35,521 bases of DNA from Chloroflexota bacterium (GTDB lineage: Bacteria > Chloroflexota > Limnocylindria > Limnocylindrales > CSP1-4), in assembly GCA_016875645.1 (NCBI GenBank), contig VGPE01000002.1, positions 1-35,521 of the forward strand, in the 5' to 3' direction. Below are positions 14,608-35,521 of the stretch, piece after piece. The position numbers were made by a program, and so were the translations under genes. The notes beneath the pieces were generated by a model. The model did no database searches and was not told the origin of the DNA. It saw only the letters and a list, made by a program, of their open reading frames with translations. Position 1 is the first letter of the stretch, and every line of letters begins with the position of its first letter.

Positions 14608-15807
14608 TCATCGGACCGCCCCGATCCCGCCCGGCGCGAACCCGCCCAGCTGTTCCGGCCGCAGCGGGTGCGCCCGCACCACGTCCTCGTTGATGTCGCT
14701 CCCCCACCCGGGCCGGTCCGGCACGACGAGCTCCCCATCGACGATCTCGAACGGGTGGGTCAGCAGGTCCATCTTCCAGGGCACGTCGTCCATGTCGATC
14801 TCGAGGATCTCCACGTTGGACAGCGCCGCACACAGCTGGGCGTTGATCATGGTGGTGAGCGGGCTCATCCAGTTGTGGGGCGAGACCATCACGTCGTACA
14901 GCTCGGCCATCTCGGCGATCTTGCGCGTCTCCGAGAACCCGTTGGACAGCGTCTCCAGCATCACCACGTCCGTGACGTGCGCCTGGAAGAACGGCCGGAA
15001 CTGGTCGCGGCGGAACAGCGACTCGCCGTGGCAGAAGCGGGTGGTGGTCTGCTCGCGCGCCGCCAGGAGTGCGCCCGGATCGAGGTTCTCCACCTCCAGC
15101 CAGTACAGGTTGAACGGCTCCATCGCCTTCGCGAGCGCCACGATGCCGCCCATCCGGTAGTTGAACTGCACATCCACGGCGATCCCGATGTCCGGCCCCA
15201 CCACGTCGCGGATGGTCCCGATCCAGGTCACCGCCTCGTCGAGCGTCCGCTTGTCGATCGCCCCGTCCAGGTAGTGCGCCAGCACCGCCGGCTTCCCGGG
15301 CCCGCCCTCCCAGAACAGGTTGGTCTTGAGGACCTTGTAGCCGGCCGCAACGACCTCCCTCGCGCCCTCCGCCCATTCCCGATACGTGTGCTGCGGCTCC
15401 ACGCCCAGGACCTCAGGCCAGACCGCGCGGTACGTGGCGAAGTGGCTCCAGTAGAGGGGGATCCGGTCGCGGAACCTCCCGCCGATCAACTCGTAGACCG
15501 GCACCCCCAGCGCCTTGCCCTTGATGTCCCACAGGGCCAGCTCGATCGCGGCGAGGACCTTGATCCGCTCCGGGGTGCCGGGCCTCGCGAGGTACCACAT
15601 CCGCTCCACGAACGGCTCGATCCGGAACGGGTCGTAGCCGATGCACTCCCGCCCGATGATGCGGATCGCCGTGGCCAGCGACGCGACCGCCGTGAAGTCG
15701 TAGATCTCGGACCAGCCGACGATCCCTTCATCGGTGGTCACCTTCAGGAACCCGAACTGGCGCAGCCCGCCGTCGCACACCAACGGCTCGATGGCGGTGA
15801 TCTTCAC
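14608..15807 (-). CDS. Enolase-superfamily enzyme, mandelate racemase/muconate lactonizing family (D-galactonate dehydratase-like), paralog 2
   Basis: MKITAIEPL...FLKVTTDEGIVGWSE. It is collinear with paralog 1 and roughly half the residues are identical by eye. Motifs VDVQFNY, YWLEVEN, CHGESL and SPHN are present. Confidence 0.85.
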   Translation of the reverse strand: MKITAIEPLVCDGGLRQFGFLKVTTDEGIVGWSEIYDFTAVASLATAIRIIGRECIGYDPFRIEPFVERMWYLARPGTPERIKVLAAIELALWDIKGKALGVPVYELIGGRFRDRIPLYWSHFATYRAVWPEVLGVEPQHTYREWAEGAREVVAAGYKVLKTNLFWEGGPGKPAVLAHYLDGAIDKRTLDEAVTWIGTIRDVVGPDIGIAVDVQFNYRMGGIVALAKAMEPFNLYWLEVENLDPGALLAAREQTTTRFCHGESLFRRDQFRPFFQAHVTDVVMLETLSNGFSETRKIAEMAELYDVMVSPHNWMSPLTTMINAQLCAALSNVEILEIDMDDVPWKMDLLTHPFEIVDGELVVPDRPGWGSDINEDVVRAHPLRPEQLGGFAPGGIGAVR

Positions 15808-15970
15808 CCGGCAGTCCCCTCCCTCGAATGACGCGAGTCTAGCGAGCCGACGTGGGCGGGGCGAACCCCGGACCCCCCGGTCCGGCGCTGCTCGCCGGCA
15901 GCCGTTTCCGCTGGCGAACCTGTCTCCCGCAGGCCCTCACCGCGGCGGGCCGCCGCTGCCGCGGCGCGGG

Positions 15971-17911
15971 TCAGGCCTCGGCGTCGAGCACCTGGTCGAT
16001 GGCCAGCCAGCGCCGGTCGAGCGCAAGATGGAGCACGGTCGGGCCCGGATGCGCGAGTGCGTCGCGCAATGCCGGTTCGAACGACGCGTCGTCCGCGATT
16101 GTCACGCCCTGCGCTCCGCAGGCCCGTGCCACCGCCGCGAAGTCGATCGGGCCAAGGTCGGTCGCGAGGGGCCGGCCGTTGCCGCGCTTCTCCTGGTGTG
16201 CGCGGATCGTGCCGTAGCGCTGGTTGTCGAACACCAGTGCGACGACCCGGGCACGTTCGCGGACCGCCGTCTCAAGCTCGGCCATCAGCATCGCGAACCC
16301 GCCGTCGCCGGCGAGCGCGATCGCGTGGCGGTTCGGACGCGTGACACCGGCCGCGATCGCGGCCGGCAGGGCATAGCCCATCGCGCCCGACGTCGGACCG
16401 AGGAACGTTCCGGGCCGGCTGAATCGCAGTCCGCGCGCCGCCCAGTGTCCGAAGTTGCCCGCGTCGGTCGTGACCACCGTGTCGGCGCTCAGCACCGACG
16501 AGAGCGTTGCCACGATCCGGCCAGGGTGGACGCCAGGGCCGTCCCACGGCTCACCGCCCACGACGGACGCGGCCTCGTACGCCGCCCGGTCCTCGCGGTT
16601 GAGGACCTCGCGTGCCTGGATCACTGCGGCCTCGAGGGCGCCGGCCCGCAGCCGCTCGACGGCACTCCGCAGGAAGCTGCGCGTGTCCGCGGTGACCGAG
16701 AGGCGCGGCGCCGGCAGGCCGGGGGCATTCGTGCGTGGTTCGAGGTCCACGTGGGCCCAGGCCTGGCCTCTCGCGGGGATGCTGTAGTCGTAGGACGTCG
16801 GCTCGTTGAGGCGGCTGCCGAGCACGAGCAGGAAGTCCGCGGCGCGCAGCCGCTCACGCACAGTCGCCGGCGATGCGTAGCCGGCCATGCCCAGGTAGAG
16901 CGGGTGCTCGTTGGGGAAGACGTCCGGGCGCCGCCAGGACGCGACCACCGGCACCTCGAGCATCTCGGCGAGCTGGACAAGGTCCGCGGTCGCGCGGGCG
17001 CGCAGGACACCGGCCCCAGCCAGGATCAACGGCCGCCGTGCGGCAGCAAGGTGGTGGAGGACGCGCCGCACCGCGGACGTGTCGAGGTCCGGCGAACGCG
17101 GCCGGAACGGCGGCGGCTCGATCGACTGGGGGAAGGTGTCGTCGAAGAGGTCCTCGGGGACCGACAGGTACACCGGACCCGGGCGGCCGGCTCGCAGGTG
17201 GCGGCTCAGTTCATCGAGAGCAGCGGGCACGGCGTTCCGGTCGGACAGCTCGGTCGCCCACTTGGCGAGGCGTCCGAACGAGGCCACCTGGTCCACCTCC
17301 TGGAACGCCTCGCGACCGCGATGGCGGCGAGCGACCTGGCCCGCGATCACGATCATCGGCGTGGAGTTCTGGCGCGCGGTGTGGACGGCGATCGCAAGGT
17401 TTGCGGCCCCGACGGCTCGCGTCCCGATCGCAAGGGCAGGGCGACCGGTCAACTGCCCGTATGCCTCCGCCATGAACCCGGCGCCGCCCTCGTGGCGTGT
17501 CGTGATCACGCGGACCCCCTCGTCCGCAAGCGCCTCGAGCAGGCCCAGGAAGCTCTCGCCGGGAACGGTGAAGGCCATCCGCACGCCGAACCCGCGCAAT
17601 GCGCGGGCGATCAGCGTCGCAACCGACATCGGCACGGCCGGTTCGGCAGGGGCAGCGGGCTCCGCAGGGGTGGCGGCCTCGGCGGCCAGCTCGGCGACGG
17701 CGACAGGCTCGGCTTCGAGCGTCACCGGCTCGGCGACGGCGACAGGCTCGGCGACGGCGACAGGCTCGGCTTCGAGCGTCACCGGCTCGGCGACCAGTGC
17801 CGTTTCGCCGACCGGCTCATGCCCGATCGTCATGTCGGTCTCGGCTTCGAGCTCCTCGATGAGTCCGGACCCGGAGGCCTGGGGCTTGGTCAGGGTCCCG
17901 TCGTCAACCAT
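15971..17911 (-). CDS. Thiamine-pyrophosphate-dependent enzyme (acetolactate synthase large subunit-like family) with ~94-aa acidic Pro/Ala/Val/Glu repeat N-terminal extension
   Basis: The TPP-enzyme core starts at MSVATLIARALRGFGVRMAFTVPGESFLGLLEAL. The TPP-binding motif is ALAGDGGFAMLMAELETAV. ATG 17911 has GGAG 6 nt upstream, whereas the internal ATG 17629 (core start) has no SD, so the long form is favoured. Confidence 0.8.
   Translation of the reverse strand: MVDDGTLTKPQASGSGLIEELEAETDMTIGHEPVGETALVAEPVTLEAEPVAVAEPVAVAEPVTLEAEPVAVAELAAEAATPAEPAAPAEPAVPMSVATLIARALRGFGVRMAFTVPGESFLGLLEALADEGVRVITTRHEGGAGFMAEAYGQLTGRPALAIGTRAVGAANLAIAVHTARQNSTPMIVIAGQVARRHRGREAFQEVDQVASFGRLAKWATELSDRNAVPAALDELSRHLRAGRPGPVYLSVPEDLFDDTFPQSIEPPPFRPRSPDLDTSAVRRVLHHLAAARRPLILAGAGVLRARATADLVQLAEMLEVPVVASWRRPDVFPNEHPLYLGMAGYASPATVRERLRAADFLLVLGSRLNEPTSYDYSIPARGQAWAHVDLEPRTNAPGLPAPRLSVTADTRSFLRSAVERLRAGALEAAVIQAREVLNREDRAAYEAASVVGGEPWDGPGVHPGRIVATLSSVLSADTVVTTDAGNFGHWAARGLRFSRPGTFLGPTSGAMGYALPAAIAAGVTRPNRHAIALAGDGGFAMLMAELETAVRERARVVALVFDNQRYGTIRAHQEKRGNGRPLATDLGPIDFAAVARACGAQGVTIADDASFEPALRDALAHPGPTVLHLALDRRWLAIDQVLDAEA
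17692..17795 (-). repeat. In-frame tandem DNA repeat built from an 18-nt unit (cggcgacggcgacaggct) and a 21-nt unit (cggcttcgagcgtcaccggct) in the order 18-21-18-18-21
   Basis: Read directly from the plus strand: 17692-17709, 17710-17730, 17731-17748, 17749-17766, 17767-17787, then a partial copy. It encodes AEPVTLEAEPVAVAEPVAVAEPVTLEAEPVAV. Confidence 0.9.
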
Positions 17912-18023
17912 GCTCGACTCCGATCACAACGGCATGGTGATGCTCGACAGGACGAGTCCGACGGCGAGGATCACCGCTACAACGATGAAGACAGCGCGCG
18001 CGAGGCGCGCCCCGGGAAGCATC

Positions 18024-18515
18024 CTAGCGGTAATTCTGGAACTGGAGGGGAACCGTCTCGTCCAGTTCGCGCAGCCGCGTGATCACGCGCTGCAGGTCGT
18101 CCTTGGATTTTCCCGAGACCCGCACGGCATCACCCTGGATCTGCGGCTTCACCTTTGGAAACTCGTCGCGAATCAACCTGGAGATCTTCTTCGCCAGGTC
18201 CTCGGCGAGCCCGCGCCGGAGCGTGATGACCTGGCGGACCTTGTTCCCACCCGCTGGCTCGATCCTGCCCCAGTCGAAGATCTTGAGCGAGAGGTTGCGT
18301 TTGATCGCCTTCGACTCGATGAGGTCGCGGATGGCCTTCGCGCGGAACTCGTCGTCGGTGACGAGCGTGATGTCCTCTTTGCCCTGGGTCAAGTCCACCG
18401 TCGCGCCCTTGAAGTCGAACCGCTGCTGGACCTCGCGACGCACCTGGTCGAGGGCGTTGCGCAGTTCCTGCTCGTCGAACTCGCTCACGACGTCGAACGA
18501 GACGTCTCCCGCCAT
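18024..18515 (-). CDS. yajQ: YajQ family (UPF0234) nucleotide / cyclic-di-GMP-binding protein
   Basis: From ATG 18515, 163 aa: MAGDVSFDVVSEFDEQELRNALDQVRREVQQRFDFKG... is the canonical YajQ N-terminus and length. The upstream 49 codons of the ORF are Arg/Ala-rich and were rejected. Confidence 0.9.
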   Translation of the reverse strand: MAGDVSFDVVSEFDEQELRNALDQVRREVQQRFDFKGATVDLTQGKEDITLVTDDEFRAKAIRDLIESKAIKRNLSLKIFDWGRIEPAGGNKVRQVITLRRGLAEDLAKKISRLIRDEFPKVKPQIQGDAVRVSGKSKDDLQRVITRLRELDETVPLQFQNYR

Positions 18516-23863: not shown

Positions 23864-25261
23864 TCACCGGCGTTGCGTCTGAACAGGTGCACTGCCCGGC
23901 TGGAAACGCCACGTCTCCGGCACCCCGGGGCGCCCGAGCCGGCCGAGCGGGGTCCCGTTGAGGGTGAAGTACGTCACCCCCGAGGACCCCGTCCGCACCT
24001 CCACCGATTCCTGTCCGGTGAACGTCAGCGTCCGGCCGCTGTTGAATGTGGTGCCGGCCGCACCGATCGTCGGATCGAGCTCGCCATCCACCCAGACCTT
24101 GATCCAAGCGGGCCCACCGTTGATCTCGACGACCAGGTTGACGCCTCGATACTGGACGGTGACGGAGCGCGTGATCGTCGTTGAGCGCGCCTGCGAACTC
24201 GACGCGGTGACGGTGATCGACCAGCGGCCGGTCGTGAGATCGAGCCCGGCCTGATAGACGCCCTCCTCATCCACGTCGACCACCTCGGGTGCGGGCGGCG
24301 AGGGCGCCGGGCCGGTCCGAGAGCCCTCGCCCGGGGCCGGGCCAAGGTAGGTCGCACTCACGGTCACGCTGGTGGCGTTCGTCGCCGTCCCCTCGACCGG
24401 GATCGCCCCGTTCTCGAATGACGCGTCGTCCGCCGGCTGGTCCACCGTGAGCGACGGTGCCTGGGCCACGGTGAACGGCACGGTGATGAAGATGCGGGCT
24501 GGCTGCTCGGCCGACTTGCCGGTCTCGGGGTCGGTGGCGGTCACGTCGAACTGGTTGCGGCCGCGGCGCAACTCCACCTCCGCCGCCCAGGTGCCGTCCG
24601 CAGCGGTCGTGGTCCGTCGTGGTTCCTCGCCCGGTGCCGCGACCACGATCGAAACTCCGGGCTGAGAGGTCCCCCGGAGCACGTAGGTCGGGGTCCCCTC
24701 CTCCACGTCGGACACCGCGGTCGCGGGATCGGTCACGCTCAACGTCGGCGGCCGCGAGAAGCGCATCAGCTGGATGGCGAGGTAGGCGACGAACGCGAGG
24801 ACGCCGATCGCGAGCAGGGCGGCCACGAAGATGCCCGGCGAGAACGTCAGGCGCTGGCGCGGGGCCGGGATGGGCCGGGGTACGACGATCACCGGCTCGG
24901 CAATGGGGGTTTCACCCCGCTCTGCGCGCCACTGCTCCAGGATCTCGTCGGGATCGAGCCCCAGGTACTGCGCGTAATTGCGCAGGAATCCCTTCGTGTA
25001 GACCGACCCCGGCAGGTCGCGCCAGTCGCCCCGCTCGAGGGCGCTCAGGTAACGGGCACGGATCTTCGTGTCGCGCTCAGCGCGCGCGAGGTCGACTCCC
25101 TTGTCCTCGCGCGCGGCGAGCAGCCGCTCGGGCAGGCCCGTCGGCGGCCCGGCGTCGGTCGGCGATCTGCCCGCGTCGGGCGATCCGCCGTTCGCTGGCG
25201 GCCGGGCACTGCCCGGTCGAGCCTCAGCCGGTCGACGTCGGGCCCGATCGCTCGTTGTCAT
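23864..25261 (-). CDS. rodZ: RodZ-like cytoskeleton-associated protein: XRE-type HTH, one TM helix, extracytoplasmic Ig-like region and DUF4115-like C-terminus
   Basis: LARAERDTKIRARYLSALERGDWRDLPGSVYTKGFLRNYAQYLGLD is the RodZ-type HTH. The TM helix is IFVAALLAIGVLAFVAYLAIQLM. The C-terminus is VNLVVEINGGPAWIKVWVDGE...FTLNG. The start overlaps the ftsK stop (ATGA at 25258-25261). Confidence 0.7.
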   Translation of the reverse strand: MTTSDRARRRPAEARPGSARPPANGGSPDAGRSPTDAGPPTGLPERLLAAREDKGVDLARAERDTKIRARYLSALERGDWRDLPGSVYTKGFLRNYAQYLGLDPDEILEQWRAERGETPIAEPVIVVPRPIPAPRQRLTFSPGIFVAALLAIGVLAFVAYLAIQLMRFSRPPTLSVTDPATAVSDVEEGTPTYVLRGTSQPGVSIVVAAPGEEPRRTTTAADGTWAAEVELRRGRNQFDVTATDPETGKSAEQPARIFITVPFTVAQAPSLTVDQPADDASFENGAIPVEGTATNATSVTVSATYLGPAPGEGSRTGPAPSPPAPEVVDVDEEGVYQAGLDLTTGRWSITVTASSSQARSTTITRSVTVQYRGVNLVVEINGGPAWIKVWVDGELDPTIGAAGTTFNSGRTLTFTGQESVEVRTGSSGVTYFTLNGTPLGRLGRPGVPETWRFQPGSAPVQTQRR

Positions 25262-27718: not shown

Positions 27719-29386
27719 TCAGACCTCAACCACGACCGGAAAGACCATCGGCCGGCGCTTGGTCTGCTCATAGAGGTACCGTGACACTGCGTCCTTGACC
27801 TGGCTCTTGAGCAGCCCGACCTCGCTGATGTGCTCGCCCGGATTCTCGATCGAGACGATCACCTTCTCGATCGTGGTCTGAATGAGCGGGTCCTGCTCGT
27901 TGCCGGGCACGAAGCCGCGCGTGATGATCTCGGGCCGGCCGATCACGTTGCCGGTCTGCTTGTCGACCGTGATCACCACCATGAACATGCCGTCGTTCGC
28001 GAGCGCCCGCCGATCCCGCAGCACGATCTCCCCCACTTCGCCGACCGAGAGTCCGTCCACATAGACGTATCCGGCCGGGACCGGTGCGCCGCGCCGCGCC
28101 GACCCGTCGGGCAGGATCTCGATCGGCATCCCATTTTCAATGATGAAGACGTTGGACGGATCCACCCCGGTCTCGATCGCAAGCCGACCGTGCTGGACCT
28201 GCATCCGGAACTCGCCGTGGATCGGGATGAAGTGGCGCGGCTTGGTCAGGCCCAGCATGAGCTTGAGTTCTTCCTGGCTGGCGTGGCCCGAGACATGAGC
28301 GCGCTTGATCGTGTGGTAGTACACGTTGGCGCCGGCCTTGAACAGGTTGTCGATCGTGCGCGCGACGTACTCCTCGTTGCCGGGGATCGGGCTGGCGCTG
28401 ACGATGACGGTGTCGCCGGGCTGGATGTCGACCCAGCGGTGGTCGCGGTTGGCCATGCGCGAGAGGCCGGACATCGGCTCGCCCTGGGCACCCGTGGTCG
28501 CGATGACCAGACGGCTGTCGGGGATCGAGCTGATCTGCTCCTTCGGCACGATGCCGCTCGGCTCGTACTTGAGGTAGCCGAGGTCCGTGGCGATCCGGAA
28601 GTTCTGCTCCATGGAGCGTCCGATCACCGCGACCTTGCGGTCGAACTGCGACGATGCGTCGAGCACCTGCTGGAGGCGAGCGATATTGCTCGCGAAGGTG
28701 GCGACGATCACCCGACCCTCGAGTGGCTCCATGATCTCCCGGAACGCCTCGCCGACGGTCCGTTCCGAGGGCGTGTAGCCCGGGTTCTCGGCTCGCGTGG
28801 AGTCCGAAAGCAGGCAGACCACACCCTCTTCGCCGAGTCTGGCGAGGATGTGGAAGTCCGAGAGCTTGCCGTCGACCGGGGTGTGGTCGAACTTGAAGTC
28901 GCCGGTGTGGACCGCGGTGCCGACAGGCGTCCGGAGCGCGATACCCATCGCGTCAGGGATGGAGTGACCGACGCGGAACGGGATGACGGTGAACGGGCCG
29001 ATGGCCGTTTCGTCGCCCGGCTCGAGCGCGATGAGCGGGTTGTGATGGAGCTTGTGCTCCCGGATCTTGTTGCCGAGCAGGCCTCGCGCGAGGGTGGACG
29101 CATAGACGGGCACGCCCGGGAATTCGGGCAGGATGTAGGGCAGGCCGCCGACGTGGTCCTCGTGGGCGTGGGTGATGAGGAACGCCTTCACGTTGGCTCG
29201 GCGCTCCTTGAGATACGTCACGTCGGGGATCACGAGGTCGATGCCGAACATCTCCTCGTCGGGGAACATCAGCCCGCAGTCGATGACGACGATGTCGTCG
29301 CCGTACTCGAACACGTACATGTTCTTGCCGATCTCGCCAACGCCACCGAGGGGGATGATGCGGAGCGGCATTCGTGGGTCGGGCAT
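27719..29386 (-). CDS. rnj: Ribonuclease J (metallo-beta-lactamase/beta-CASP RNase)
   Basis: LRIIPLGGVGEIGKNMYVFEYGDDIVVIDCGLMFPD, ITHAHEDHVGGLPY (HxHxDH) and HVSGHASQEELKLM (beta-CASP motif C). The length of 555 aa fits. Confidence 0.95.
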   Translation of the reverse strand: MPDPRMPLRIIPLGGVGEIGKNMYVFEYGDDIVVIDCGLMFPDEEMFGIDLVIPDVTYLKERRANVKAFLITHAHEDHVGGLPYILPEFPGVPVYASTLARGLLGNKIREHKLHHNPLIALEPGDETAIGPFTVIPFRVGHSIPDAMGIALRTPVGTAVHTGDFKFDHTPVDGKLSDFHILARLGEEGVVCLLSDSTRAENPGYTPSERTVGEAFREIMEPLEGRVIVATFASNIARLQQVLDASSQFDRKVAVIGRSMEQNFRIATDLGYLKYEPSGIVPKEQISSIPDSRLVIATTGAQGEPMSGLSRMANRDHRWVDIQPGDTVIVSASPIPGNEEYVARTIDNLFKAGANVYYHTIKRAHVSGHASQEELKLMLGLTKPRHFIPIHGEFRMQVQHGRLAIETGVDPSNVFIIENGMPIEILPDGSARRGAPVPAGYVYVDGLSVGEVGEIVLRDRRALANDGMFMVVITVDKQTGNVIGRPEIITRGFVPGNEQDPLIQTTIEKVIVSIENPGEHISEVGLLKSQVKDAVSRYLYEQTKRRPMVFPVVVEV

Positions 29387-29400
29387 GCGCTCGTCCAGGT

Positions 29401-30102
29401 TCAGAACAGGGTCGGCTGGGGGATGGCGGGCCCGTCAGGGTCCGGCGCAACCGGAGTTGCCGGCAGGGGCGGCTCGGGCGCCGGCGAGGCGGCGGCCTGG
29501 AGCAGCTGCCGCCGGGCCCGCGCCGCCAGCAGCGCCGCCGGCACCGAGGCCATGTCCACGAAGCTCGTGCGCTCGATGTCCGGCGTCCGCAGGGCAGCGG
29601 CCGGGTGGTACATCGCAACGGCGAGGGCGTGGGGCGCGCCGGTCGCGGGGTCGACAGGTCGTGTCGTTCCGTGCGCCGCGCCGATCCGCGCGCCGGGCAT
29701 GAAGGTGCCCATCGAATAGCGGCCCAGGGTCACGACCAGCGCCGGGTCCAGCGCCGCCAGCTGGCGCTGGAGGAAGGGTGCGCAGGTAGCGATCTCGTCC
29801 GGCAGCGGATCGCGATTGTCGGGCGGTCGGCACTTCACGACATTGGTGATGAACACGTCCTCGCGGCGCCAGCCGATCGACGCCAGGAGGCGGACCAGGA
29901 GCGCGCCGGCCCGGCCGACGAACGGCCGGCCCTCGCGGTCCTCGTTGAAGCCCGGTCCCTCACCGACGAACATGACCTCGGTATCGGGGTTGCCCTCTCC
30001 GGGAACCGCGCGCGTCCGGCCCGCGCTGAGGCGACAGCGGGTGCAGGCGCGGACTTCGTTCGCGATCTGCTCGAGCGCGACGCTGCGCTCGGCCTCCGTC
30101 AC
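29401..30102 (-). CDS. Uracil-DNA glycosylase, family 4 (Fe-S type)
   Basis: ACTRCRL...VPGEGNPDTEVMFVGEGPGFNEDREGRPFVGRAGALL...FITNVVKCRPP...HP are family-4 UDG motifs. GTG 30102 overlaps the asd stop (GTGA at 30099-30102). The longer ORF to 30174 would overlap asd by 76 nt. Confidence 0.85.
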   Translation of the reverse strand: MTEAERSVALEQIANEVRACTRCRLSAGRTRAVPGEGNPDTEVMFVGEGPGFNEDREGRPFVGRAGALLVRLLASIGWRREDVFITNVVKCRPPDNRDPLPDEIATCAPFLQRQLAALDPALVVTLGRYSMGTFMPGARIGAAHGTTRPVDPATGAPHALAVAMYHPAAALRTPDIERTSFVDMASVPAALLAARARRQLLQAAASPAPEPPLPATPVAPDPDGPAIPQPTLF

Positions 30103-31187
30103 GCGGACTCCGCTACCGATCGGGCTGCGCCCGCCCCGGTGGCTGTTCCCCGGCGATCGGCCGGCTGGAGCCATTCGTTCTCGACGAGGAGTTCCGCGAT
30201 CTCGACGGCATTGGTCGCGGCGCCCTTGCGAACGTTGTCGCTGACGACCCAGAACGCCAGGCCATGAGCAACCGATGGGTCGCGTCGGACGCGACCGACG
30301 AAGATCTCGTCACGCCCGGCGGCCTCGGTCGCGAGCGGGTAGACGTGTGACCCGGGGTCGTCGCGGACGACGACGCCGGGGACCTCGGTGAAGATCTCAC
30401 GCGCAGTCTCGGGCGAGATGGCCGCCGAGGTCTCGACATGGACGGCTTCCGAATGGGCGTAGAAGACCGGGATCCGAACCGCGGTGCACGAGATGCGCAG
30501 ATCCGGCATGTGGAGGATCTTGCGGCTCTCCGTGACGACCTTCCACTCCTCGCGGGAATACCCGTTCTCGAGGAACACGTCGATCTCGGGCAGCGCGTTG
30601 AACGCGATCTGATGCGGGTACACCGAGACGTCCAGCGGCCGGTTCTCGGCGTAGGCGCGGACCTGGCCTTCCAGTTCCTCGATGGCCGGAGCGCCCGTGC
30701 CCGACACCGACTGGTACGTGTCCACGACCACTCGCTCGATGCCGACGCGGTCGCGCAGCGCCATCAGGAGCGGCACCAGCTGCATCGTGGAGCAGTTCGG
30801 GTTGGCGATGATCCCCCGGTGCTCGGCGGCGTCACCCGGGTTCACCTGGCTGACGACGAGCGGGACGCCGGGCTCCATCCGAAACGCGTTGGAGTTGTCG
30901 ATCACGACGGCGCCGCGCTTTGCCGCTTCGGGCGCAAGTTCGCGCGAGATGTCGGCGCCGGCCGAGAAGAGCGCGAGATCAACGCCCTCGAACGCCTCGG
31001 GCGTGGCCTCCGCGACGGTGAGCACCTGCTCGCCGACCTGGACCGTCCGGCCGACCGACCGACCGGATGCGAGCAGCCGCAACTCCCCGACGGGGAATTC
31101 CCGTTCGAGGAGCACTGCGATCATGGTTCGGCCGACGACGCCGGTCGCGCCGACGACTGCGACGGTCAAGAGCGGCTGGGAGGGCAT
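30099..31187 (-). CDS. asd: Aspartate-semialdehyde dehydrogenase
   Basis: From ATG 31187 (362 aa): LTVAVVGATGVVGRTM (NADP loop), IIANPNCSTMQLV (catalytic Cys) and HSEAVHVE. The upstream 66 codons of the ORF are Arg/Pro-rich and were rejected. Confidence 0.92.
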   Translation of the reverse strand: MPSQPLLTVAVVGATGVVGRTMIAVLLEREFPVGELRLLASGRSVGRTVQVGEQVLTVAEATPEAFEGVDLALFSAGADISRELAPEAAKRGAVVIDNSNAFRMEPGVPLVVSQVNPGDAAEHRGIIANPNCSTMQLVPLLMALRDRVGIERVVVDTYQSVSGTGAPAIEELEGQVRAYAENRPLDVSVYPHQIAFNALPEIDVFLENGYSREEWKVVTESRKILHMPDLRISCTAVRIPVFYAHSEAVHVETSAAISPETAREIFTEVPGVVVRDDPGSHVYPLATEAAGRDEIFVGRVRRDPSVAHGLAFWVVSDNVRKGAATNAVEIAELLVENEWLQPADRRGTATGAGAARSVAESA

Positions 31188-31331
31188 CCCGGGCGTAACT
31201 CCGCGCGAGTGGAAACCGGGCACGGCGCCAGTATACCGCTCGCCCCGAACGGGGCTGAACCGCGGATCAGCGGCAGCCGTCGATGACCGGCAGCATGGGT
31301 GCCGCGGGGCCGACCGGACCCGAGCGCGTCG

Positions 31332-31357
31332 GAGGCCCGCCGTCGCCGGCGGGCCTC
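31332..31357 (-). terminator. Perfect 10-bp GC-rich stem-loop about 43 nt downstream of the pnp stop (terminator or 3'-end-protecting hairpin candidate)
   Basis: Minus-strand RNA GAGGCCCGCC-ggcgac-GGCGGGCCTC. There is no U-tract, so Rho-independent termination is not assured. A smaller CCCGG-gttg-CCGGG hairpin lies just upstream of it. Confidence 0.45.
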
Positions 31358-31399
31358 GGCGTTTCGTGACTGCGTGACCCGGCAACCCGGGCTCGGAAC

Positions 31400-33982
31400 C
31401 TAGACCGGTTCCTTCGCGAGGTGCCGCTGCATCGCGGTCTTGCGCGAGAGGTTGATCCGGCCCTGGCGATCGATCTCGGTGACGACCACCATCACCTCGT
31501 CGCCCACGGACACCACGTCCTCGACCGTCGGCACGTGATAGTCAGCCAGCTCGCCGATGCGGACCAGGCCTTCCTTGCCGGGCAGGATCTCCACGAACGC
31601 GCCGAACGTCATGATCCGGGTGACCTTGCCGAGGTACAGCGAGCCCACCTCGACGTCGCGGGTCAGGCTTTCGATCCAGTTGATGGCCTTGCGCGAGTTC
31701 TCGCCCGAGATCGCGGCGATTTCGACGGTGCCGTCGTCCTCGACGTTGATCTCGGTGCCGGTCTCTTCCTGGATCTTGCGGATCATGGAGCCGCCCTTGC
31801 CGATGATCTCGCGGATCTTTTCGGGGTTGATCTTGATGGTGATGATCCGCGGCGCGAACTCGCTCATCGTGTCGCGCGTCTGGGGCATGACCTCAAGCAT
31901 CTTGTCGAGGATGGCCATGCGGGCGGCATGCGCTTTGCGCAGACCTTCGCGGATGATCGCTTCGTTGATGCCCTGGATCTTGATGTCCATCTGCAGCGCG
32001 GTGATGCCGTCGCGGGTGCCGGTCACCTTGAAGTCCATGTCACCGAAGGCATCCTCCTTGCCGAGGATGTCGGTGAGGACCGCGAAACGGCCATCCGGCT
32101 CCGACATGAGACCCATCGCGGCGCCCGCGACCGGAGCCTTGATCGGAACGCCGGCGTCCATCAGGGCGAGCGTGGAGCCGCAGGTCGATGCCATCGAGGT
32201 GGAGCCGTTGGACGTCACGCACTCGGACACGAGGCGGATGACGTAGGGGAACTCCTCGGCCGACGGCAGGACCGGCAGCAGTGCCCGCTCGGCCAGGTTG
32301 CCGTGTCCGATCTCGCGCCGGCCGGGGCCGCGCATCGGCTTGTTCTCGCCGGTGCTGTAGGGCGGCATGTTGTAGTGGTGGAGGTAGCGCTTCTCCGTCT
32401 CGGGGCCGATCGTGTCGATCCGCTGCACGTCCGACGACGGACCGAGGGTCGCCACGGTGAGCGCCTGGGTCTGGCCGCGCGTGAACAGGCCCGAGCCATG
32501 AGTGCGCGGCAGGACGCCGACCTCGACCGCGATCGGCCGGATCTCGTCCACGCCGCGGCCGTCCATCCGGACGCCCTCGGTGAGGGTCAGCTCGCGGGCG
32601 ACCTTCTTGTGGAGCAGACCGAAGAGGCCCTTGCCCACGCGCGCCTGGCGGCGCGCCGCCTCCAACAGCGCCTTCGGGTCGGCGCCCGACTCGCGGTTGG
32701 CTAGGATCGACCGCGCGATCCCCTCGTCGAGAGTGGCAATGCGGCCGGGGAGGTCGGCGGCGAGCCGGATCAGCACCTGGGCGGTGGTCTCCGCGTCGCC
32801 CGCGGCACGGTGGTTGCCCTCGTAGGCGATCCCGAAGAACCGGGCGACGTCGCCCAGTTTGTAGGCGTCCTGGTCGGGATGGGCCTCGCGGACGAGCGTG
32901 AGCGTGTCGAGGTACGTGCCAGGCGCGAACGTCTCGTCGCCCATCGCCTCATGGAGGAAGCCCAGGTCAAAGCCGACGTTGTGGCCGACCAGCAGGGCAT
33001 CGCCCGCGAACGCACGGAAGCGGCGGACCGCCTCGCGGGAATCGGGAGCGTCACGGACATCCTCGTCGTGGAGGCCGTGGACCTGGTTGCCGACGATCGG
33101 GCGGCCCGGGTTCACGAGCGTGGAAAAGCGCTCGACGATCTCGGTGTCGCGGACTTTGACGGCGCCGATCTCGATCAGGTCCGCCATGCGCGGATCGCGA
33201 CCGGTCGTCTCGACGTCCACGACGACGAACTCGCGCCCGCCCCGGACCGCGTCGACGAACTGGAGGACGCTGTCGGTGCCGGCATCGATGAACGGGATGA
33301 CCTTGGCCTTGCCGACCGCCCCGCGGAGCTGCTCCTGGAGGTCGATCAGTGGCTGCAGCGCACGGTGGCCGAACAGGATGCCCTCGGCCATCACGTCCTC
33401 GGGCAGGATCTTTGCCCCGGCCTCGACCATCATGATCGCGTCGCGCGTGCCGGACACGATGAGGTCGAGCTCGGATTCCTCGAGCTGGGAGGTGGTCGGG
33501 TTGACCACGAACTCGCCGTCGATGCGGCCGACGCGAACTGCGCCGATGGGGCCCTGGAACGGGATCTCGCTGATGGTCAGGGCCGCCGATGCTGCGATCG
33601 TGCCCAGGACGTCGGGGTCGTTCTCCTGGTCGGTCGAGAGCACGGTGATGACGACCTGGACGTCGTCCTTGTAGCCCTCGGGGAACAGCGGGCGGATTGG
33701 CCGGTCCGTCAGACGCGCCGCGAGGATCGCGGCTTCCGATGGGCGGGACTCGCGCTTGATGAACCCGCCGGGAATCTTGCCCGCGGCGTACATCCGCTCC
33801 TCGAAGTCCACCGTGAGCGGGAAGAAGTCCAGCCCGGGCCGGGGGTCCGAGCGGTTGGCGGTGCCGAGCACCATGGTGTCGCCGAAGCGGACAGTGACGG
33901 AGCCCCCTGCGAGACGGGCGAGCTTGCCGGTCTCGATGGTCAGGGTGCGACCGCCGAACTGCGTCTCGAATACCTGAGACAC
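31400..33982 (-). CDS. pnp: Polynucleotide phosphorylase (PNPase) carrying an inserted DEDDh (DnaQ/RNase T-like) 3'-5' exonuclease domain between the two RNase PH domains
   Basis: The order is: PH1 (FGGRTLTIETGKLA.., IPGGFIKRESRPSE); the insert (FVVVDVETTG / LVGHNVGFDLGFL / NHRAAGDAETTAQVL); PH2 (RMDGRGVDEIRPI, LPRTHGSGLFTRGQTQAL, GSTSMASTCGSTLALMDAGVP, MDFKVTGT); KH (GKGGSMIRKIQEETG); S1 (GKVTRIMTFGAFVEILPGKEGLVRIGEL). GTG 33982 is preceded by AAGGAGG (33994-34000). The longest ORF starts at GTG 34030. Confidence 0.93.
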   Translation of the reverse strand: MSQVFETQFGGRTLTIETGKLARLAGGSVTVRFGDTMVLGTANRSDPRPGLDFFPLTVDFEERMYAAGKIPGGFIKRESRPSEAAILAARLTDRPIRPLFPEGYKDDVQVVITVLSTDQENDPDVLGTIAASAALTISEIPFQGPIGAVRVGRIDGEFVVNPTTSQLEESELDLIVSGTRDAIMMVEAGAKILPEDVMAEGILFGHRALQPLIDLQEQLRGAVGKAKVIPFIDAGTDSVLQFVDAVRGGREFVVVDVETTGRDPRMADLIEIGAVKVRDTEIVERFSTLVNPGRPIVGNQVHGLHDEDVRDAPDSREAVRRFRAFAGDALLVGHNVGFDLGFLHEAMGDETFAPGTYLDTLTLVREAHPDQDAYKLGDVARFFGIAYEGNHRAAGDAETTAQVLIRLAADLPGRIATLDEGIARSILANRESGADPKALLEAARRQARVGKGLFGLLHKKVARELTLTEGVRMDGRGVDEIRPIAVEVGVLPRTHGSGLFTRGQTQALTVATLGPSSDVQRIDTIGPETEKRYLHHYNMPPYSTGENKPMRGPGRREIGHGNLAERALLPVLPSAEEFPYVIRLVSECVTSNGSTSMASTCGSTLALMDAGVPIKAPVAGAAMGLMSEPDGRFAVLTDILGKEDAFGDMDFKVTGTRDGITALQMDIKIQGINEAIIREGLRKAHAARMAILDKMLEVMPQTRDTMSEFAPRIITIKINPEKIREIIGKGGSMIRKIQEETGTEINVEDDGTVEIAAISGENSRKAINWIESLTRDVEVGSLYLGKVTRIMTFGAFVEILPGKEGLVRIGELADYHVPTVEDVVSVGDEVMVVVTEIDRQGRINLSRKTAMQRHLAKEPV

Positions 33983-34059
33983 GGGGATGGGAGCCTCCTT
34001 GCATCCGCGCAGGAGGAGGTCTCGGTGCACGTCAACCCGCCAAGGCGACGCATCGGATC

Positions 34060-34079
34060 GTCCCGTCGCGGGACGGGAC
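34060..34079 (-). promoter_or_regulatory. 8-bp GC stem-loop in the rpsO-pnp intergenic region (attenuator or processing-site candidate)
   Basis: Minus-strand RNA GTCCCGTC-ccgc-GACGGGAC, starting 13 nt after the rpsO stop and about 77 nt before the pnp start. There is no U-tract. Confidence 0.4.
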
Positions 34080-34092
34080 CGGGTGGCGATCG

Positions 34093-34362
34093 CTAGCGGC
34101 GAAGCCCCAGCCGTCCGATGACGGCGCGGTAGCGCGCGTTGTCCTTCTTGACCAGGTAGGCAAGAAGGCGTCGGCGCTGGCCCACGAGCTTGAGGAGGCC
34201 GCGGCGAGAGTGATTGTCCTGTGGGAAGCTCCGGAGGTGATCCGTGAGTCCCCTGATCCGCTCCGTCAGGAGCGCGATCTGGACCTCGGGCGAGCCGGTG
34301 TCACCAGCCGTTGTGGCGTACTCCGACACCAGCGTCTGCTTCGTTTCCCGCGCCAGCGGCAC
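34093..34362 (-). CDS. rpsO: 30S ribosomal protein S15
   Basis: [48 protein letters not shown] is the S15 signature. GTG 34362 gives the canonical 89 aa and has GGAGG 5 nt upstream. The ORF track start (GTG 34377) adds 5 aa. Confidence 0.93.
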
Positions 34363-34414
34363 CCGTTCCTCCAACACGAACTACTACGTTGTCGTTCCTT
34401 CTCTTGACCGGCGC

Positions 34415-34523: not shown

Positions 34524-35330
34524 TCAGGGGCCCGGGAAGCTCACCCGCAGACGAGGTCCGGGCACGGCAGACAGCAGCTCCAGCTGGACACGCCCGCCCG
34601 AGACCACCGCTGTCGCCGCGACCGGCGGCGCATCGCCACGGCCAGATCCCAGGGGCGGTTCGACGAGGACGTCGTACCGGCCGTCGGGAGGCAGGGCGAC
34701 CGGCAGCCGGAACGCCAGCTCGACAACGTCGCCGCCGGCGATGCCGGTTTCGGCACGCTCCCCGACCACCGCCACCGGCCGTCCCAGCAGGGCAGCGGCG
34801 CCGGCCAGGTCGCCGGCGGCGATGTCGTCGCGGATCTCCGCGCTGCGGACATGGCGTCCATCGAGGTCGAACGGCAGCACGACCACCACGTCGAAGCCCT
34901 CGGCGCGGCCCAGGGCGGCGACCGTCTCGGGCGTGCCGCCGCGCTGGTGCCCGAACGCCGCGTCGGGCGTCATTAGGAACCCGGCCAGCTCGGTTCGCTC
35001 GCTGATCATCGAAACGAACTGGTCGAACGGGGTCATGCGCAGTGCCGTGTCGAAATGCTGCACCACCGTGACGGCGACGCCCGCGTCCCCGAGGCGGACC
35101 AGGCGTTCGGCCGGATCGACCAGGACCGGCGGCGCATGCCCGTGCAGGATCTCCTCGGGATGCGCGTCGAACGTGACGACGACCGGCCGAGCGCCCATGC
35201 GGCGCGCGTGCGTTCGCAGCTGCTCCAGGAGATAGGCATGGCCACGATGCAGCCCGTCGAACACGCCGACGACGACGAACAGGCGACCCTCTGCGGGCGT
35301 CAGCGCGGCCAGGCCCGGGACGACACGCAT
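34524..35330 (-). CDS. ribF: FAD synthetase (FMN adenylyltransferase) RibF with a short, apparently degenerate riboflavin-kinase-like C-terminal domain
   Basis: MRVVPGLAALTPAEGRLFVVVGVFDGLHRGHAYLL (the GxFDGxHxGH nucleotidyltransferase motif at canonical distance from ATG 35330) and VRSAEIRDDI (SSxIR-like). The reading frame stays open upstream to the window edge (see findings). Confidence 0.8.
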   Translation of the reverse strand: MRVVPGLAALTPAEGRLFVVVGVFDGLHRGHAYLLEQLRTHARRMGARPVVVTFDAHPEEILHGHAPPVLVDPAERLVRLGDAGVAVTVVQHFDTALRMTPFDQFVSMISERTELAGFLMTPDAAFGHQRGGTPETVAALGRAEGFDVVVVLPFDLDGRHVRSAEIRDDIAAGDLAGAAALLGRPVAVVGERAETGIAGGDVVELAFRLPVALPPDGRYDVLVEPPLGSGRGDAPPVAATAVVSGGRVQLELLSAVPGPRLRVSFPGP

Positions 35331-35438
35331 CGGCGAGGTGCGGGGGCGGCGCCGCGCGGTCACCGGCGGCTCGCGGCGGACCGCTTCCTCAACGGGCGCG
35401 GCCGTCGGACGCTTTGCGGGCACTGGCGGACCGCCGGC

Positions 35439-35521
35439 GAGCACCTTCTCGGGCGCGAGGCGGCCGTCGCGGAGCCCGGCGATCGCGAGCAGTGATCCGT
35501 CGGCCCGAAGCAGCCGATAGT
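35439..35521 (-). CDS. truB: 3' end of tRNA pseudouridine(55) synthase TruB (partial, continues beyond the window)
   Basis: The minus-strand frame reads YRLLRADGSLLAIAGLRDGRLAPEKVL, which matches the usual TruB C-terminal (PUA-like) ending ..G.LLAI.....G.L.P.KV. truB upstream of ribF-rpsO-pnp is a conserved gene order. Only 27 aa are visible. Confidence 0.45.

Follow-up and report, generated by a model that had tools for sequence, protein, structure and literature searches.

The window, the whole 35,521-nt stretch of DNA that was analysed, carries on its minus strand a single unbroken pnp open reading frame (ORF) of 876 aa at 31400..34030, next to rpsO, the canonical partner of pnp (Table 1). 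The gene order ribF-rpsO-pnp-asd-UDG-rnj is conserved across related loci, with rpsO upstream of pnp in 76 of the 80 loci examined and a gene of the UDG family in a conserved position two genes downstream of pnp. A first-pass annotation of this DNA had placed RNase J in the same gene string, and its gene is indeed found there, at 27719-29386 on the minus strand. The GTG at 33982 is likely the start codon of pnp because AAGGAGG occurs 11 nt upstream of it and because the homologue consensus of the PNPase-DEDDh proteins starts with MSQVFETQF. Counted from this GTG, the product has the ~860 aa originally given for it, and the ORF is uninterrupted by stop codons or frameshifts, also as first described. 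Residue numbers below are those of the 876-aa ORF, from which 16 must be subtracted to obtain the numbering of the likely mature protein. Long ORFs on the plus strand, at 32810-34096 and 31421-32704, overlap pnp and look like antisense shadows of the kind that is common in high-GC sequence.

Table 1 Features of the rpsO-pnp locus, with residue numbers from the 876-aa ORF.
Feature	Position	Strand	Evidence or remarks
rpsO (ribosomal protein S15)	34093..34377	minus	Pfam Ribosomal_S15, E=4.6e-34; directly upstream of pnp
rpsO-pnp leader	33983..34092	minus	GC-rich hairpin right after rpsO; anti-SD CCTCCTCC 12 nt upstream of SD AAGGAGG
pnp (PNPase-DEDDh fusion)	31400..33982	minus	860 aa from likely start GTG at 33982
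PH1 (RNase PH-like + its RNase_PH_C part), aa 19-240	33311..33976	minus	Alignment to 5yjj residues 18-239; Pfam RNase_PH + RNase_PH_C
N-terminal piece of all-alpha linker, aa 241-265	33236..33310	minus	Flexible loop 241-252 (low pLDDT) and helix 253-263 in models
Predicted DEDDh (DnaQ-like) 3'-5' exonuclease domain, aa 266-424	32759..33235	minus	Pfam, sequence relatives, segment model
Pfam RNase_T PF00929 match, aa 269-420	32771-33226	minus	Model 1-164/164; 96.6 bits vs cut-off 24; E=3e-27
Exo I D272-x-E274 (DVETTG)	33209..33217	minus	D and E invariant, 67/67
Exo II Asp D355 (GHNVGFD)	32966..32968	minus	Invariant, 67/67
Exo III H407-x4-D412 (HRAAGD)	32795..32812	minus	H and D invariant, 67/67; defines DEDDh subtype
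C-terminal piece of all-alpha linker, aa 425-472	32615..32758	minus	Helices in both models; 8zaw alignment
PH2 + KH + S1, aa 473-866	31433..32614	minus	Aligns to 5yjj residues 316-709

The protein is the housekeeping pnp product of a Limnocylindria-type Chloroflexota bacterium. Pfam matches on the whole protein comprise two copies each of RNase_PH and RNase_PH_C, KH_1 at 730-787 and S1 at 793-864, in addition to RNase_T, and together with alignment to solved PNPases they confirm the domain order PH1, helical linker, PH2, KH and S1, including the position of KH and S1 after PH2 that had been read from the ORF. The NCBIfam PNPase equivalogs TIGR03591 and NF008805 score 948.5 and 948.6 bits against cut-offs of 525 and 471, and the equivalog match consists of two stretches that flank the insert. 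Pfam PF03726, which models the PNPase alpha-domain, has no match in the fusion protein, where the linker is present but split. In PH2, residues R571, R572 and H576, the GSTSMAS motif at 609-615, and the D..D.D.K residues D660, D664, D666 and K668, which we take to be equivalent to E. coli D486, D492 and K494, are all present and invariant in 36 sequences. The phosphate and active-site motifs, MDFKVTGT among them, had been described as intact, and the conservation of the phosphorolytic residues agrees with this description: the phosphorolytic site, like that of the DEDDh domain, is intact and conserved.

The main proposal of the first-pass annotation, that a DEDDh exonuclease domain is embedded in this PNPase, is supported by Pfam and NCBIfam scans, by alignment to solved PNPases, and by a confident model of the insert. 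The RNase_T match spans the complete Pfam model and, judged by its score, is far beyond chance. The peptides quoted for the proposal (FVVVDVETTG, LLVGHNVGFDLGFL, NHRAAGDAETTAQVL, RMDGRGVDEIRPI, GSTSMASTCGSTLALMDAGVP and MDFKVTGT) are all present, the Exo I Asp codon lies at 33217-33215 as stated, and both the order of Exo I, II and III and the DEDDh type are correct, with D272, E274, D355, H407 and D412 as the defining residues. A structural model of the insert segment (pLDDT 87.4, pTM 0.83) adopts a DnaQ-type RNase H-like alpha/beta fold, which Foldseek matches to epsilon/DnaQ with target-normalised TM-scores of 0.77-0.79 and rmsd of 2.3-2.9 Å. The insert is predicted to be a whole and catalytically competent 3'-5' exonuclease domain of the DnaQ-like DEDDh kind.

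In alignments to solved PNPases, PH1 ends at approximately residue 240 and PH2 restarts at approximately residue 473. The segment between the PH domains has 232 aa and that of chain 5yjj 76 aa, so that ~156 aa net have been gained; the two linker pieces (25 and 48 aa) correspond to the 76-aa linker of 5yjj. Residues 418-472 align to residues 267-318 in the helical domain of PNPase 8zaw. These alignments bear out the original placement of the insertion within the all-alpha linker, and the insertion point is the loop between helix 1 and helix 2 of that linker. In both models, the Exo III helix runs on unbroken as helix 409-446, after which come helices 452-463 and 467-485, and in the segment model the C-terminal linker piece has pLDDT of ~89-96. 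An AlphaFold model of the full-length protein, built with 36 sequences that are 80-94% identical, has a mean pLDDT of 56.7 and leaves PH2 and S1 unresolved; a Foldseek search with this model returned only PNPases, at a query-normalised TM-score of ~0.4.

The best solved relatives of the insert by sequence are the exonuclease of PolC (2p1j, E=4.5e-24) and that of DinG (E=3.9e-18), and its best matches by sequence and fold are the PolC exonuclease (2p1j, 9qpc), the DinG exonuclease, a Cas2-DEDDh fusion, DnaQ, epsilon, and ExoX. The top NCBIfam family at the domain level is PRK07883, which combines DEDD with a GIY-YIG/UvrC-like domain; domain-level scores reach 158.7 bits for NF005906, 129 for PolC and 120-124 for DinG, far below the cut-offs of 495-873. 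The insert thus belongs, as far as its sequence and predicted fold indicate, to the cluster formed by PolC, DinG, epsilon, and the DEDD-GIY-YIG proteins. With PolC/epsilon, DinG-N and PRK07883 proteins, the fusion shares the exonuclease domain only; their partner domains are absent from it. PolC-type DNA polymerase III, which provides the closest DEDDh sequences and structures, likewise has its DEDDh nested inside another domain, PHP (in P0149, P0156 and P0172, RNase_T falls within the PHP envelope), but there the host, which has no PH, KH or S1, is a DNA polymerase, and the domain serves in proofreading. In DinG with an N-terminal DEDD domain and in PRK07883 proteins, close DEDDh relatives are also joined to another nucleic-acid enzyme, but by terminal fusion, and the partner is a helicase or endonuclease module that acts on DNA.

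Identity with Orn was rejected, as Orn/REXO2 chains give E=0.46-0.74 with no significant stretch, and Orn is absent from the 25 best of 65 NCBIfam families for the full-length protein. Identity with RNase T was also rejected: there is a partial 77-aa match to P. aeruginosa RNase T (E=1.4e-4), E. coli chains give E=0.5-0.7, and the target-normalised TM-score of the insert fold to RNase T is 0.49-0.66, below that for epsilon. Of the earlier label "DnaQ/RNase T-type", therefore, the DnaQ-like part holds by sequence and fold, and the assignment to an RNase T or Orn type does not. With its affinity to PolC, DinG and epsilon, the insert is less readily called Orn-like in the sense of family membership, but not in the sense of function.

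[quoted passage not shown] We favor a reading, to which we assign a probability of roughly 55%, in which the fusion protein assembles as a trimeric ring carrying three additional hydrolytic 3' exonucleases, which finish or trim those RNA 3' ends that are difficult for PNPase. The usual PNPase trimer would form, with KH and S1 on one face feeding RNA 3' ends into the central channel and on to the PH2 sites for phosphorolysis, and with the three DEDDh modules on the opposite face beside the side pore to the active site. This placement relative to channel and pore is extrapolated from E. coli because the full-length model is poor. Each module would be held fairly rigidly, since the Exo III helix continues straight into the next linker helix, and would bind two metal ions with which 3'-terminal nucleotides could be hydrolyzed to NMPs. 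RNA is the expected substrate because the domain is tethered to an RNA-binding machine consisting of KH, S1 and the PH ring. The substrates may be the 2-5 nt limit products of PNPase and short 3' tails that are unable to reach the PH2 site, and the DEDDh modules would also allow phosphate-independent decay.

Canonical PNPases (E. coli, Caulobacter, S. aureus, Streptomyces) have the same domain order, phosphate- and metal-binding motifs, and rpsO-pnp synteny, but their linker is unsplit, whereas in the fusion a DEDDh domain of ~160 aa splits the linker and provides each protomer with a second, predicted hydrolytic, site. The functional model that we favor is the combination of PNPase with Orn or REXO2 in E. 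coli and in the human mitochondrial degradosome, in which a DEDDh hydrolase clears the short products of PNPase, although there the hydrolase, Orn or REXO2, is a separate, dimeric protein from another DEDDh subfamily. REXO2 scavenges the 4-5 nt products that come from PNPase-SUV3 and, if nanoRNA is in excess, raises the activity of the degradosome (PMC7261184). The pairing of a PH-domain ring that bears an S1/KH cap with a DEDD hydrolytic 3' exonuclease also occurs in the exosome with Rrp6 and in the Caulobacter degradosome, where RNase D joins PNPase and a parallel to Rrp6 on the exosome has been drawn (PMC4245959). In contrast to the non-covalent association of Rrp6 and RNase D, the fusion is covalent, is of the DEDDh subtype, and keeps its PH2 site intact. 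Rrp6 and RNase D also differ from it in being DEDDy enzymes that contain HRDC domains, and the PH ring of eukaryotes has no catalytic activity. A single polypeptide would cover the division of labor found between PNPase and Orn/REXO2, or between a PH ring and Rrp6/RNase D. More tentatively, the protein may serve as a one-polypeptide "mini-exosome" that completes RNA decay, with an active PH ring that passes limit products and stalled 3' ends to three exit-face DEDDh hydrolases for conversion to mononucleotides, also when phosphate is scarce, and that replaces a stand-alone nanoRNase in Limnocylindria; we consider this extended scheme possible but doubtful.

As the main alternative, the DEDDh domain could act on DNA or RNA-DNA hybrids, providing hydrolytic 3' end resection or R-loop clearing for DNA repair, which we regard as rather unlikely. 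PNPase has reported DNA-repair roles in B. subtilis and E. coli, and the closest characterized relatives of the insert act on DNA, as in proofreading by PolC and epsilon and in DinG and the DEDD-GIY-YIG proteins. B. subtilis DinG, for example, degrades ssDNA, which it prefers, as well as the RNA strand of hybrids, and needs Mn2+ for cutting ssRNA (PMC12525004). However, the host protein acts on RNA, has the RNA-binding domains KH and S1, and is encoded in an rpsO-pnp operon. Family affinity is also a weak predictor of substrate because the sugar often makes no difference to DEDDh domains: in one account, RNase T trims DNA (PMC3942315), and one report has REXO2 favoring neither RNA nor DNA on dinucleotides (PMC6900737). 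The conserved UDG-family gene two genes downstream of pnp would suit a role in repair, but is weak evidence for it given that asd and rnj belong to the same string.

We think it improbable that the domain is a non-nuclease structural or regulatory appendage, such as a sensor of 3' ends or nucleotides, a lid for the side pore, or a platform on which partners dock. Such a role would fit with interruption of the very domain thought to affect NDP and phosphate access (PMC2723993), and with the faster evolution of the insert, which has a median identity to the sequence in the window of ~60% vs 85% for the PH cores. Set against this, 67/67 full-length relatives retain D272, E274, D355, H407 and D412 together with the accessory DnaQ motifs ETTG, HGI/L and YxDT, whereas inactivated DEDD domains have usually lost their acidic residues. 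The dN/dS of the insert, 0.157 vs 0.115-0.144 for PH1, PH2 and KH-S1, indicates purifying selection. The N-terminal linker piece is the least constrained segment, with a dN/dS of 0.31 in close pairs.

The same architecture is widespread in related genomes. More than 120 protein clusters (80-94% identity) all contain PF00929 together with PNPase domains, and at least 226 GTDB species genomes, complete chromosomes included, encode the insert with its flanks. The carriers are all labelled as Chloroflexota or Limnocylindrales MAGs or similar, with the Limnocylindria among them recovered from soil, peat, fen and sediment metagenomes; Limnocylindria are known mainly from metagenome-assembled genomes. 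The order PH1, DEDDh, PH2 is seen in 79 of 80 loci, and the contig of the 80th stops after DEDDh. The insert segment is 159-161 aa long in 67/67 relatives, and distances between inserts co-vary with distances between cores. This fixed length and position, with co-varying distances, fits a single insertion of the DEDDh domain long ago followed by vertical inheritance. Among the best 150 of 30,170 insert-matching representatives, no independent DEDDh-PNPase fusion was found beyond the Limnocylindria-type family; the other proteins scanned were PolC fragments, a DEDD-GIY-YIG protein, stand-alone DEDDh proteins and, with NCBIfam, a DinG-type helicase fusion. A chimeric assembly, a frameshift in the gene, or a selfish insertion of recent date (such as an intein or the remnant of a mobile element) is the usual caution for an odd layout in metagenome-like sequence, has nothing in its favor, and has a negligible chance of explaining the insertion, as these independent clusters and genomes share the in-frame layout, its constant position and length, and the synteny, the usual ribF-rpsO-pnp context marks the gene as real, and an intein or mobile-element origin is ruled out by a repeat search that found no repeats flanking the insert (as first claimed), a GC content of 0.68-0.70 across the insert that equals the rest of pnp, and a whole-protein Pfam scan with no intein or extra domain.

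PNPase is among the most conserved and best-studied enzymes of RNA decay, with a five-domain layout that is considered to vary hardly at all between bacteria and organelles. Full-text literature searches, which included PNPase structure, found no paper describing a DEDDh-PNPase fusion, in keeping with the earlier remark that no characterized PNPase with such an insertion was known to its author, and Chloroflexi are absent from the text of a nano-RNase review. The fusion sequences are already public, under the name of PNPase in some entries and of "DNA polymerase III epsilon subunit family exonuclease" in others, and what is new is the recognition of the combination of PNPase with DEDDh rather than the sequence data. 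This recognition corrects the annotation of one protein that now carries two names. A lineage-wide, selected PNPase variant whose second site works by another chemistry would amount to a natural experiment. Such a variant is relevant to the coupling of phosphorolytic and hydrolytic 3' decay, elsewhere achieved by separate proteins (Orn/REXO2, RNase D, Rrp6), to the role of the poorly understood helical domain and side pore of PNPase, and to RNA turnover in Limnocylindria, and it would allow a tractable test of substrate hand-off inside one polypeptide.

Upstream of the fusion gene, the single-sequence fold of the rpsO-pnp leader is no better than that of shuffled sequences (z=0.11), and Rfam has no family at gathering score anywhere in the window. 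The sequence CCTCC is found at most 35 nt upstream of the pnp SD in 43 of 60 loci, compared with a background of 5%.

The pnp gene in the window encodes a PNPase in which a DEDDh exonuclease domain is nested between the two RNase PH-like domains, PH1 and PH2, and the domain matches confirm this arrangement far beyond chance. The domain scan suggested by the first-pass annotation, which had flagged the gene from its sequence, places a full-length RNase_T match between the PH halves (96.6 bits against a cut-off of 24, E = 3e-27), and two PNPase equivalog models (NCBIfam) match at 948 bits (cut-offs 471 and 525) as two stretches on either side of the insert (aa 266-424). The likely start codon is the GTG at 33982, with AAGGAGG 11 nt upstream; it gives a product of 860 aa, as that annotation had estimated, and the consensus of 35 homologs begins with MSQVFETQF at the same position. 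Residue numbers here follow the 876-aa ORF, and those of the likely mature protein are lower by 16. Every motif peptide quoted in the annotation was found in the ORF, with the Exo I aspartate codon at 33215-33217 as described. The ORF contains no stop codon or frameshift and no repeats were found flanking the insert, both as claimed, and the GC content of the insert (0.68-0.70) is similar to that of the remainder of the gene.

Features of the pnp region and the domains of its product
Feature	Window position	Strand	Size or position in pnp product	Source
pnp ORF, uninterrupted	31400..34030	minus	876 aa	
RNase_PH (two), RNase_PH_C (two)			pnp product	Pfam
RNase_T/DEDD domain, between PH halves			aa 269-420	Pfam, model 1-164 of 164
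KH_1			aa 730-787	Pfam
S1			aa 793-864	Pfam
rpsO-pnp intergenic leader	33983-34092	minus		
asd (aspartate-semialdehyde dehydrogenase), UDG-superfamily glycosylase, RNase J, then ftsK, downstream of pnp	asd to RNase J within 27719-31385	minus		

Alignment to solved PNPases, also proposed in the first-pass annotation, locates the insertion in the helical linker. Residues 19-240 correspond to residues 18-239 of the PNPase chain 5yjj and residues 473-867 to its residues 316-709, and with these end points for PH1 and PH2 the inter-PH segment is 232 aa long, versus 76 aa in 5yjj. The linker is kept rather than replaced, with ~25 aa ahead of the DEDDh domain and ~48 aa after it, and aa 418-472 align to the helical domain of PNPase 8zaw. 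Confidence is high in the predicted structure of aa 226-495 (mean pLDDT 87.4, pTM 0.83). In this model, a flexible loop (241-252) precedes a linker helix (253-263) that is connected by four residues to the DEDDh alpha/beta core, an unbroken helix (409-446) starts as the Exo III helix and extends into the linker, and helices 452-463 and 467-485 lead to PH2. The full-length model, which is not reliable overall, agrees with it in secondary structure over this stretch. By the order of helices in the models, the insert is lodged between the first and second helices of the all-alpha domain, and its attachment on the C-terminal side looks rigid.

In sequence, the insert is closest to a PolC-type exonuclease from Thermotoga (2p1j, E = 4.5e-24), PolC (9qpc, 3.5e-21), the S. 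aureus DinG exonuclease (3.9e-18), a Cas2-DEDDh fusion (~5e-15 to 2e-14), and a DnaQ domain (8h18, 9.4e-14), followed by E. coli epsilon (1.7e-7) and ExoX (3e-5). The best fold matches of the aa 226-495 model are DinG, PolC, DnaQ, and epsilon (target-normalised TM-score 0.77-0.79, rmsd 2.3-2.9 Å), with RNase T and TREX scoring lower, and the top NCBIfam model for the insert is PRK07883 (DEDD plus GIY-YIG/UvrC-like). These best matches in sequence, predicted fold, and NCBIfam place the insert in the proofreading/repair branch of the DnaQ-like superfamily. The nearest non-PNPase representatives scanned were PolC fragments, DEDD-GIY-YIG proteins, a DinG-type helicase fusion, and proteins with only DEDD recognised. 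Membership in the RNase T family was rejected, with a match of only 77 aa at E = 1.4e-4 and the weaker fold match, as was membership in the Orn family, where matches to Orn and REXO2 are not significant (E = 0.5-0.7). The earlier label "DnaQ/RNase T-type" therefore stands for the DEDDh superfamily and the DnaQ-like character but not for RNase T, PolC, DinG, and epsilon being closer. PolC carries a like kind of DEDDh domain nested in its PHP domain, as the domain here is nested in the PNPase linker, which shows that the fold tolerates insertion within another domain; the title of entry 2gui (cyclised epsilon) implies adjacent termini and points the same way.

We infer, with a probability of roughly 0.55, that the DEDDh site is catalytically active, hydrolysing RNA at the 3' end in a metal-dependent manner and working together with the phosphorolytic site. 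The helical domain of E. coli PNPase is on the side of the ring that faces away from KH and S1, and it helps to form a pore through which the active site has a second access, proposed to carry NDP and phosphate (PMC2723993). By extrapolation from E. coli, the three DEDDh modules of a trimer would be near these side pores, on the side where RNA does not enter. The DEDDh site could clear the short limit oligonucleotides left by PNPase, trim 3' tails too short for channel passage to PH2, and sustain decay without phosphate. In humans, the DEDDh enzyme REXO2 clears away the tetra- and pentanucleotides that PNPase-SUV3 produces, and it raises degradosome activity under excess nanoRNA (PMC7261184), and the Caulobacter degradosome contains the DEDD enzyme RNase D together with PNPase, which its authors liken to Rrp6 on a PNPase-like exosome core (PMC4245959). 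In both systems the nucleases are separate proteins, whereas in the window they form one polypeptide.

The main rival, a possible but distinctly less probable one, is that the module works on DNA or R-loops. This is suggested by the affinity of the insert with proofreading/repair exonucleases and by B. subtilis DinG, which acts preferentially on ssDNA, also degrades the RNA strand in hybrids, and requires Mn2+ to cut ssRNA (PMC12525004). However, family affinity deserves little weight in this choice, since DEDDh enzymes are often indifferent to the sugar, with RNase T and REXO2 both acting on DNA.

The two active sites are preserved and under selection. In an alignment of the window's gene with 66 complete genes from related genomes, D272 and E274 (Exo I), D355 (Exo II), and H407 and D412 (Exo III) are invariant (67/67 sequences), in keeping with the motifs read in the first-pass annotation, and because Exo III reads H-x4-D the insert is of the DEDDh subtype. 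The accessory DnaQ-type motifs ETTG, HG, and YxDT are likewise conserved. The phosphorolytic motifs, earlier described as intact, are also invariant in relatives (R571/R572/H576, GSTSMAS 609-615, and D660/D664/D666/K668; 36 sequences). In the 60 most similar pairs of sequences, the DEDDh domain has a dN/dS of 0.157, compared with 0.120 for PH1, 0.115 for PH2, and 0.144 for KH-S1; the two linker pieces have higher values (0.28-0.31). Given two invariant active sites and the low dN/dS of the DEDDh domain, a decayed or merely structural insert is unlikely, and the invariance of the catalytic residues leaves a non-catalytic role for the domain improbable.

The best 120 protein clusters matched (80-94% identical, ~860 aa) all have PF00929 together with PNPase domains. 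They originate from ENA, JGI, and NCBI, the longest contig being 3.68 Mb, and the database names of the fusion are "polyribonucleotide nucleotidyltransferase" or "DNA polymerase III epsilon subunit family exonuclease". When one genome per GTDB species was scanned with the insert and its linker flanks, the fusion was confirmed in at least 226 species. The best 80 of these genomes are labelled Chloroflexota, Candidatus Limnocylindrales, or similar; CSP1-4, an early MAG, is among them, as are two complete chromosomes. A few species genomes carry the submitter labels Anaerolineaceae, Thermomicrobiales, or Actinomycetota. The order PH1, DEDDh, PH2 occurs in 79 of 80 loci, and the contig of the 80th stops after DEDDh. 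This recurrence across clusters and related species, the search that the first-pass annotation had called for, excludes assembly chimerism at the level of sequence, and the distribution leaves an artefact or selfish insertion with almost no probability. The insert is 159-161 aa long in all 67 aligned sequences, and pairwise distances in the insert and in the PNPase core rise together (Spearman 0.47; Mantel r 0.29, a value that 2 of 999 permutations reached), a combination that fits one old insertion followed by vertical inheritance.

At E <= 1e-30, a library of 1.84 billion representatives (clusters at 50% identity) contains only 34 proteins similar to the insert, and those checked or judged by length are the PNPase fusion or its fragments, apart from a few multi-DEDD proteins. 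In three representatives of 1045-1631 aa (P0129, P0138, and P0147), the insert was matched in two or three separate stretches each, and P0129 has three RNase_T domains, then GIY-YIG and UVR motifs; these tandem DEDD arrays seemed unusual. The window's DEDDh domain is 55-67% identical to its relatives over insert and linker (median 60% for the domain), below the median of 74% among all pairs of relatives, while its PNPase core stays at ~85%. The insert may therefore be evolving faster in the window's sublineage, which includes P0001 and P0002 (93-94% over the full protein), with every catalytic residue retained.

PNPase is regarded as architecturally invariant, and nuclease domain fusions are not rare. 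Both PNPase and DEDDh are well-known families, and the novelty lies in their nested combination. The literature survey named in the first-pass annotation, run on full-text articles, turned up no account of a PNPase in which a DEDD domain is embedded, and as a recognised and analysed architecture the fusion appears undescribed; the data are not new, because the sequences are public and both Pfam domains are in precomputed tables. The fusion is lineage-wide and under selection, and lets the coupling of phosphorolytic and hydrolytic decay be tested directly.

After the rpsO stop codon, the rpsO-pnp leader contains a GC-rich hairpin, GGTCCCGTC-CCGC-GACGGGAC; at the equivalent position, a hairpin of different sequence is present in related loci. 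The pnp SD, AAGGAGG, is preceded at a distance of 12 nt by an anti-SD sequence, CCTCCTCC. In 43 of 60 loci, CCTCC is found in the 35 nt before the SD, against a background of 5%, and in most of the others the SD is within CGACC-AAGGA-GGTCG, which, read by eye, would self-pair across it. Folded as a single sequence, the leader did not outperform its shuffles, and it has no Rfam match. The leader may sequester the SD and so control pnp translation, comparable to E. coli pnp autoregulation.

The string ribF-rpsO-pnp-asd-UDG-rnj, which matches the window, is complete in 41 of 80 loci and partial where contigs are shorter, so the RNase J gene noted in the first-pass annotation is both present downstream of pnp and conserved across loci. 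In the ribF-like ORF (34524-35444, minus strand, 306 aa), FAD synthetase (PF06574, aa 54-202) is the sole Pfam match at E <= 1e-5, and no riboflavin kinase domain was reported in the C-terminal ~100 aa. Two ORFs overlap on opposite strands, at 15734-18082 (plus, 782 aa, no Pfam match at E <= 1e-5) and 15971-17911 (minus, 646 aa). The ORF at 23864-25261 (minus, 465 aa) has a RodZ-type helix-turn-helix domain (HTH_25) at its N-terminus and also carries a Glucodextranase domain B-like module, a pairing that seems unusual.
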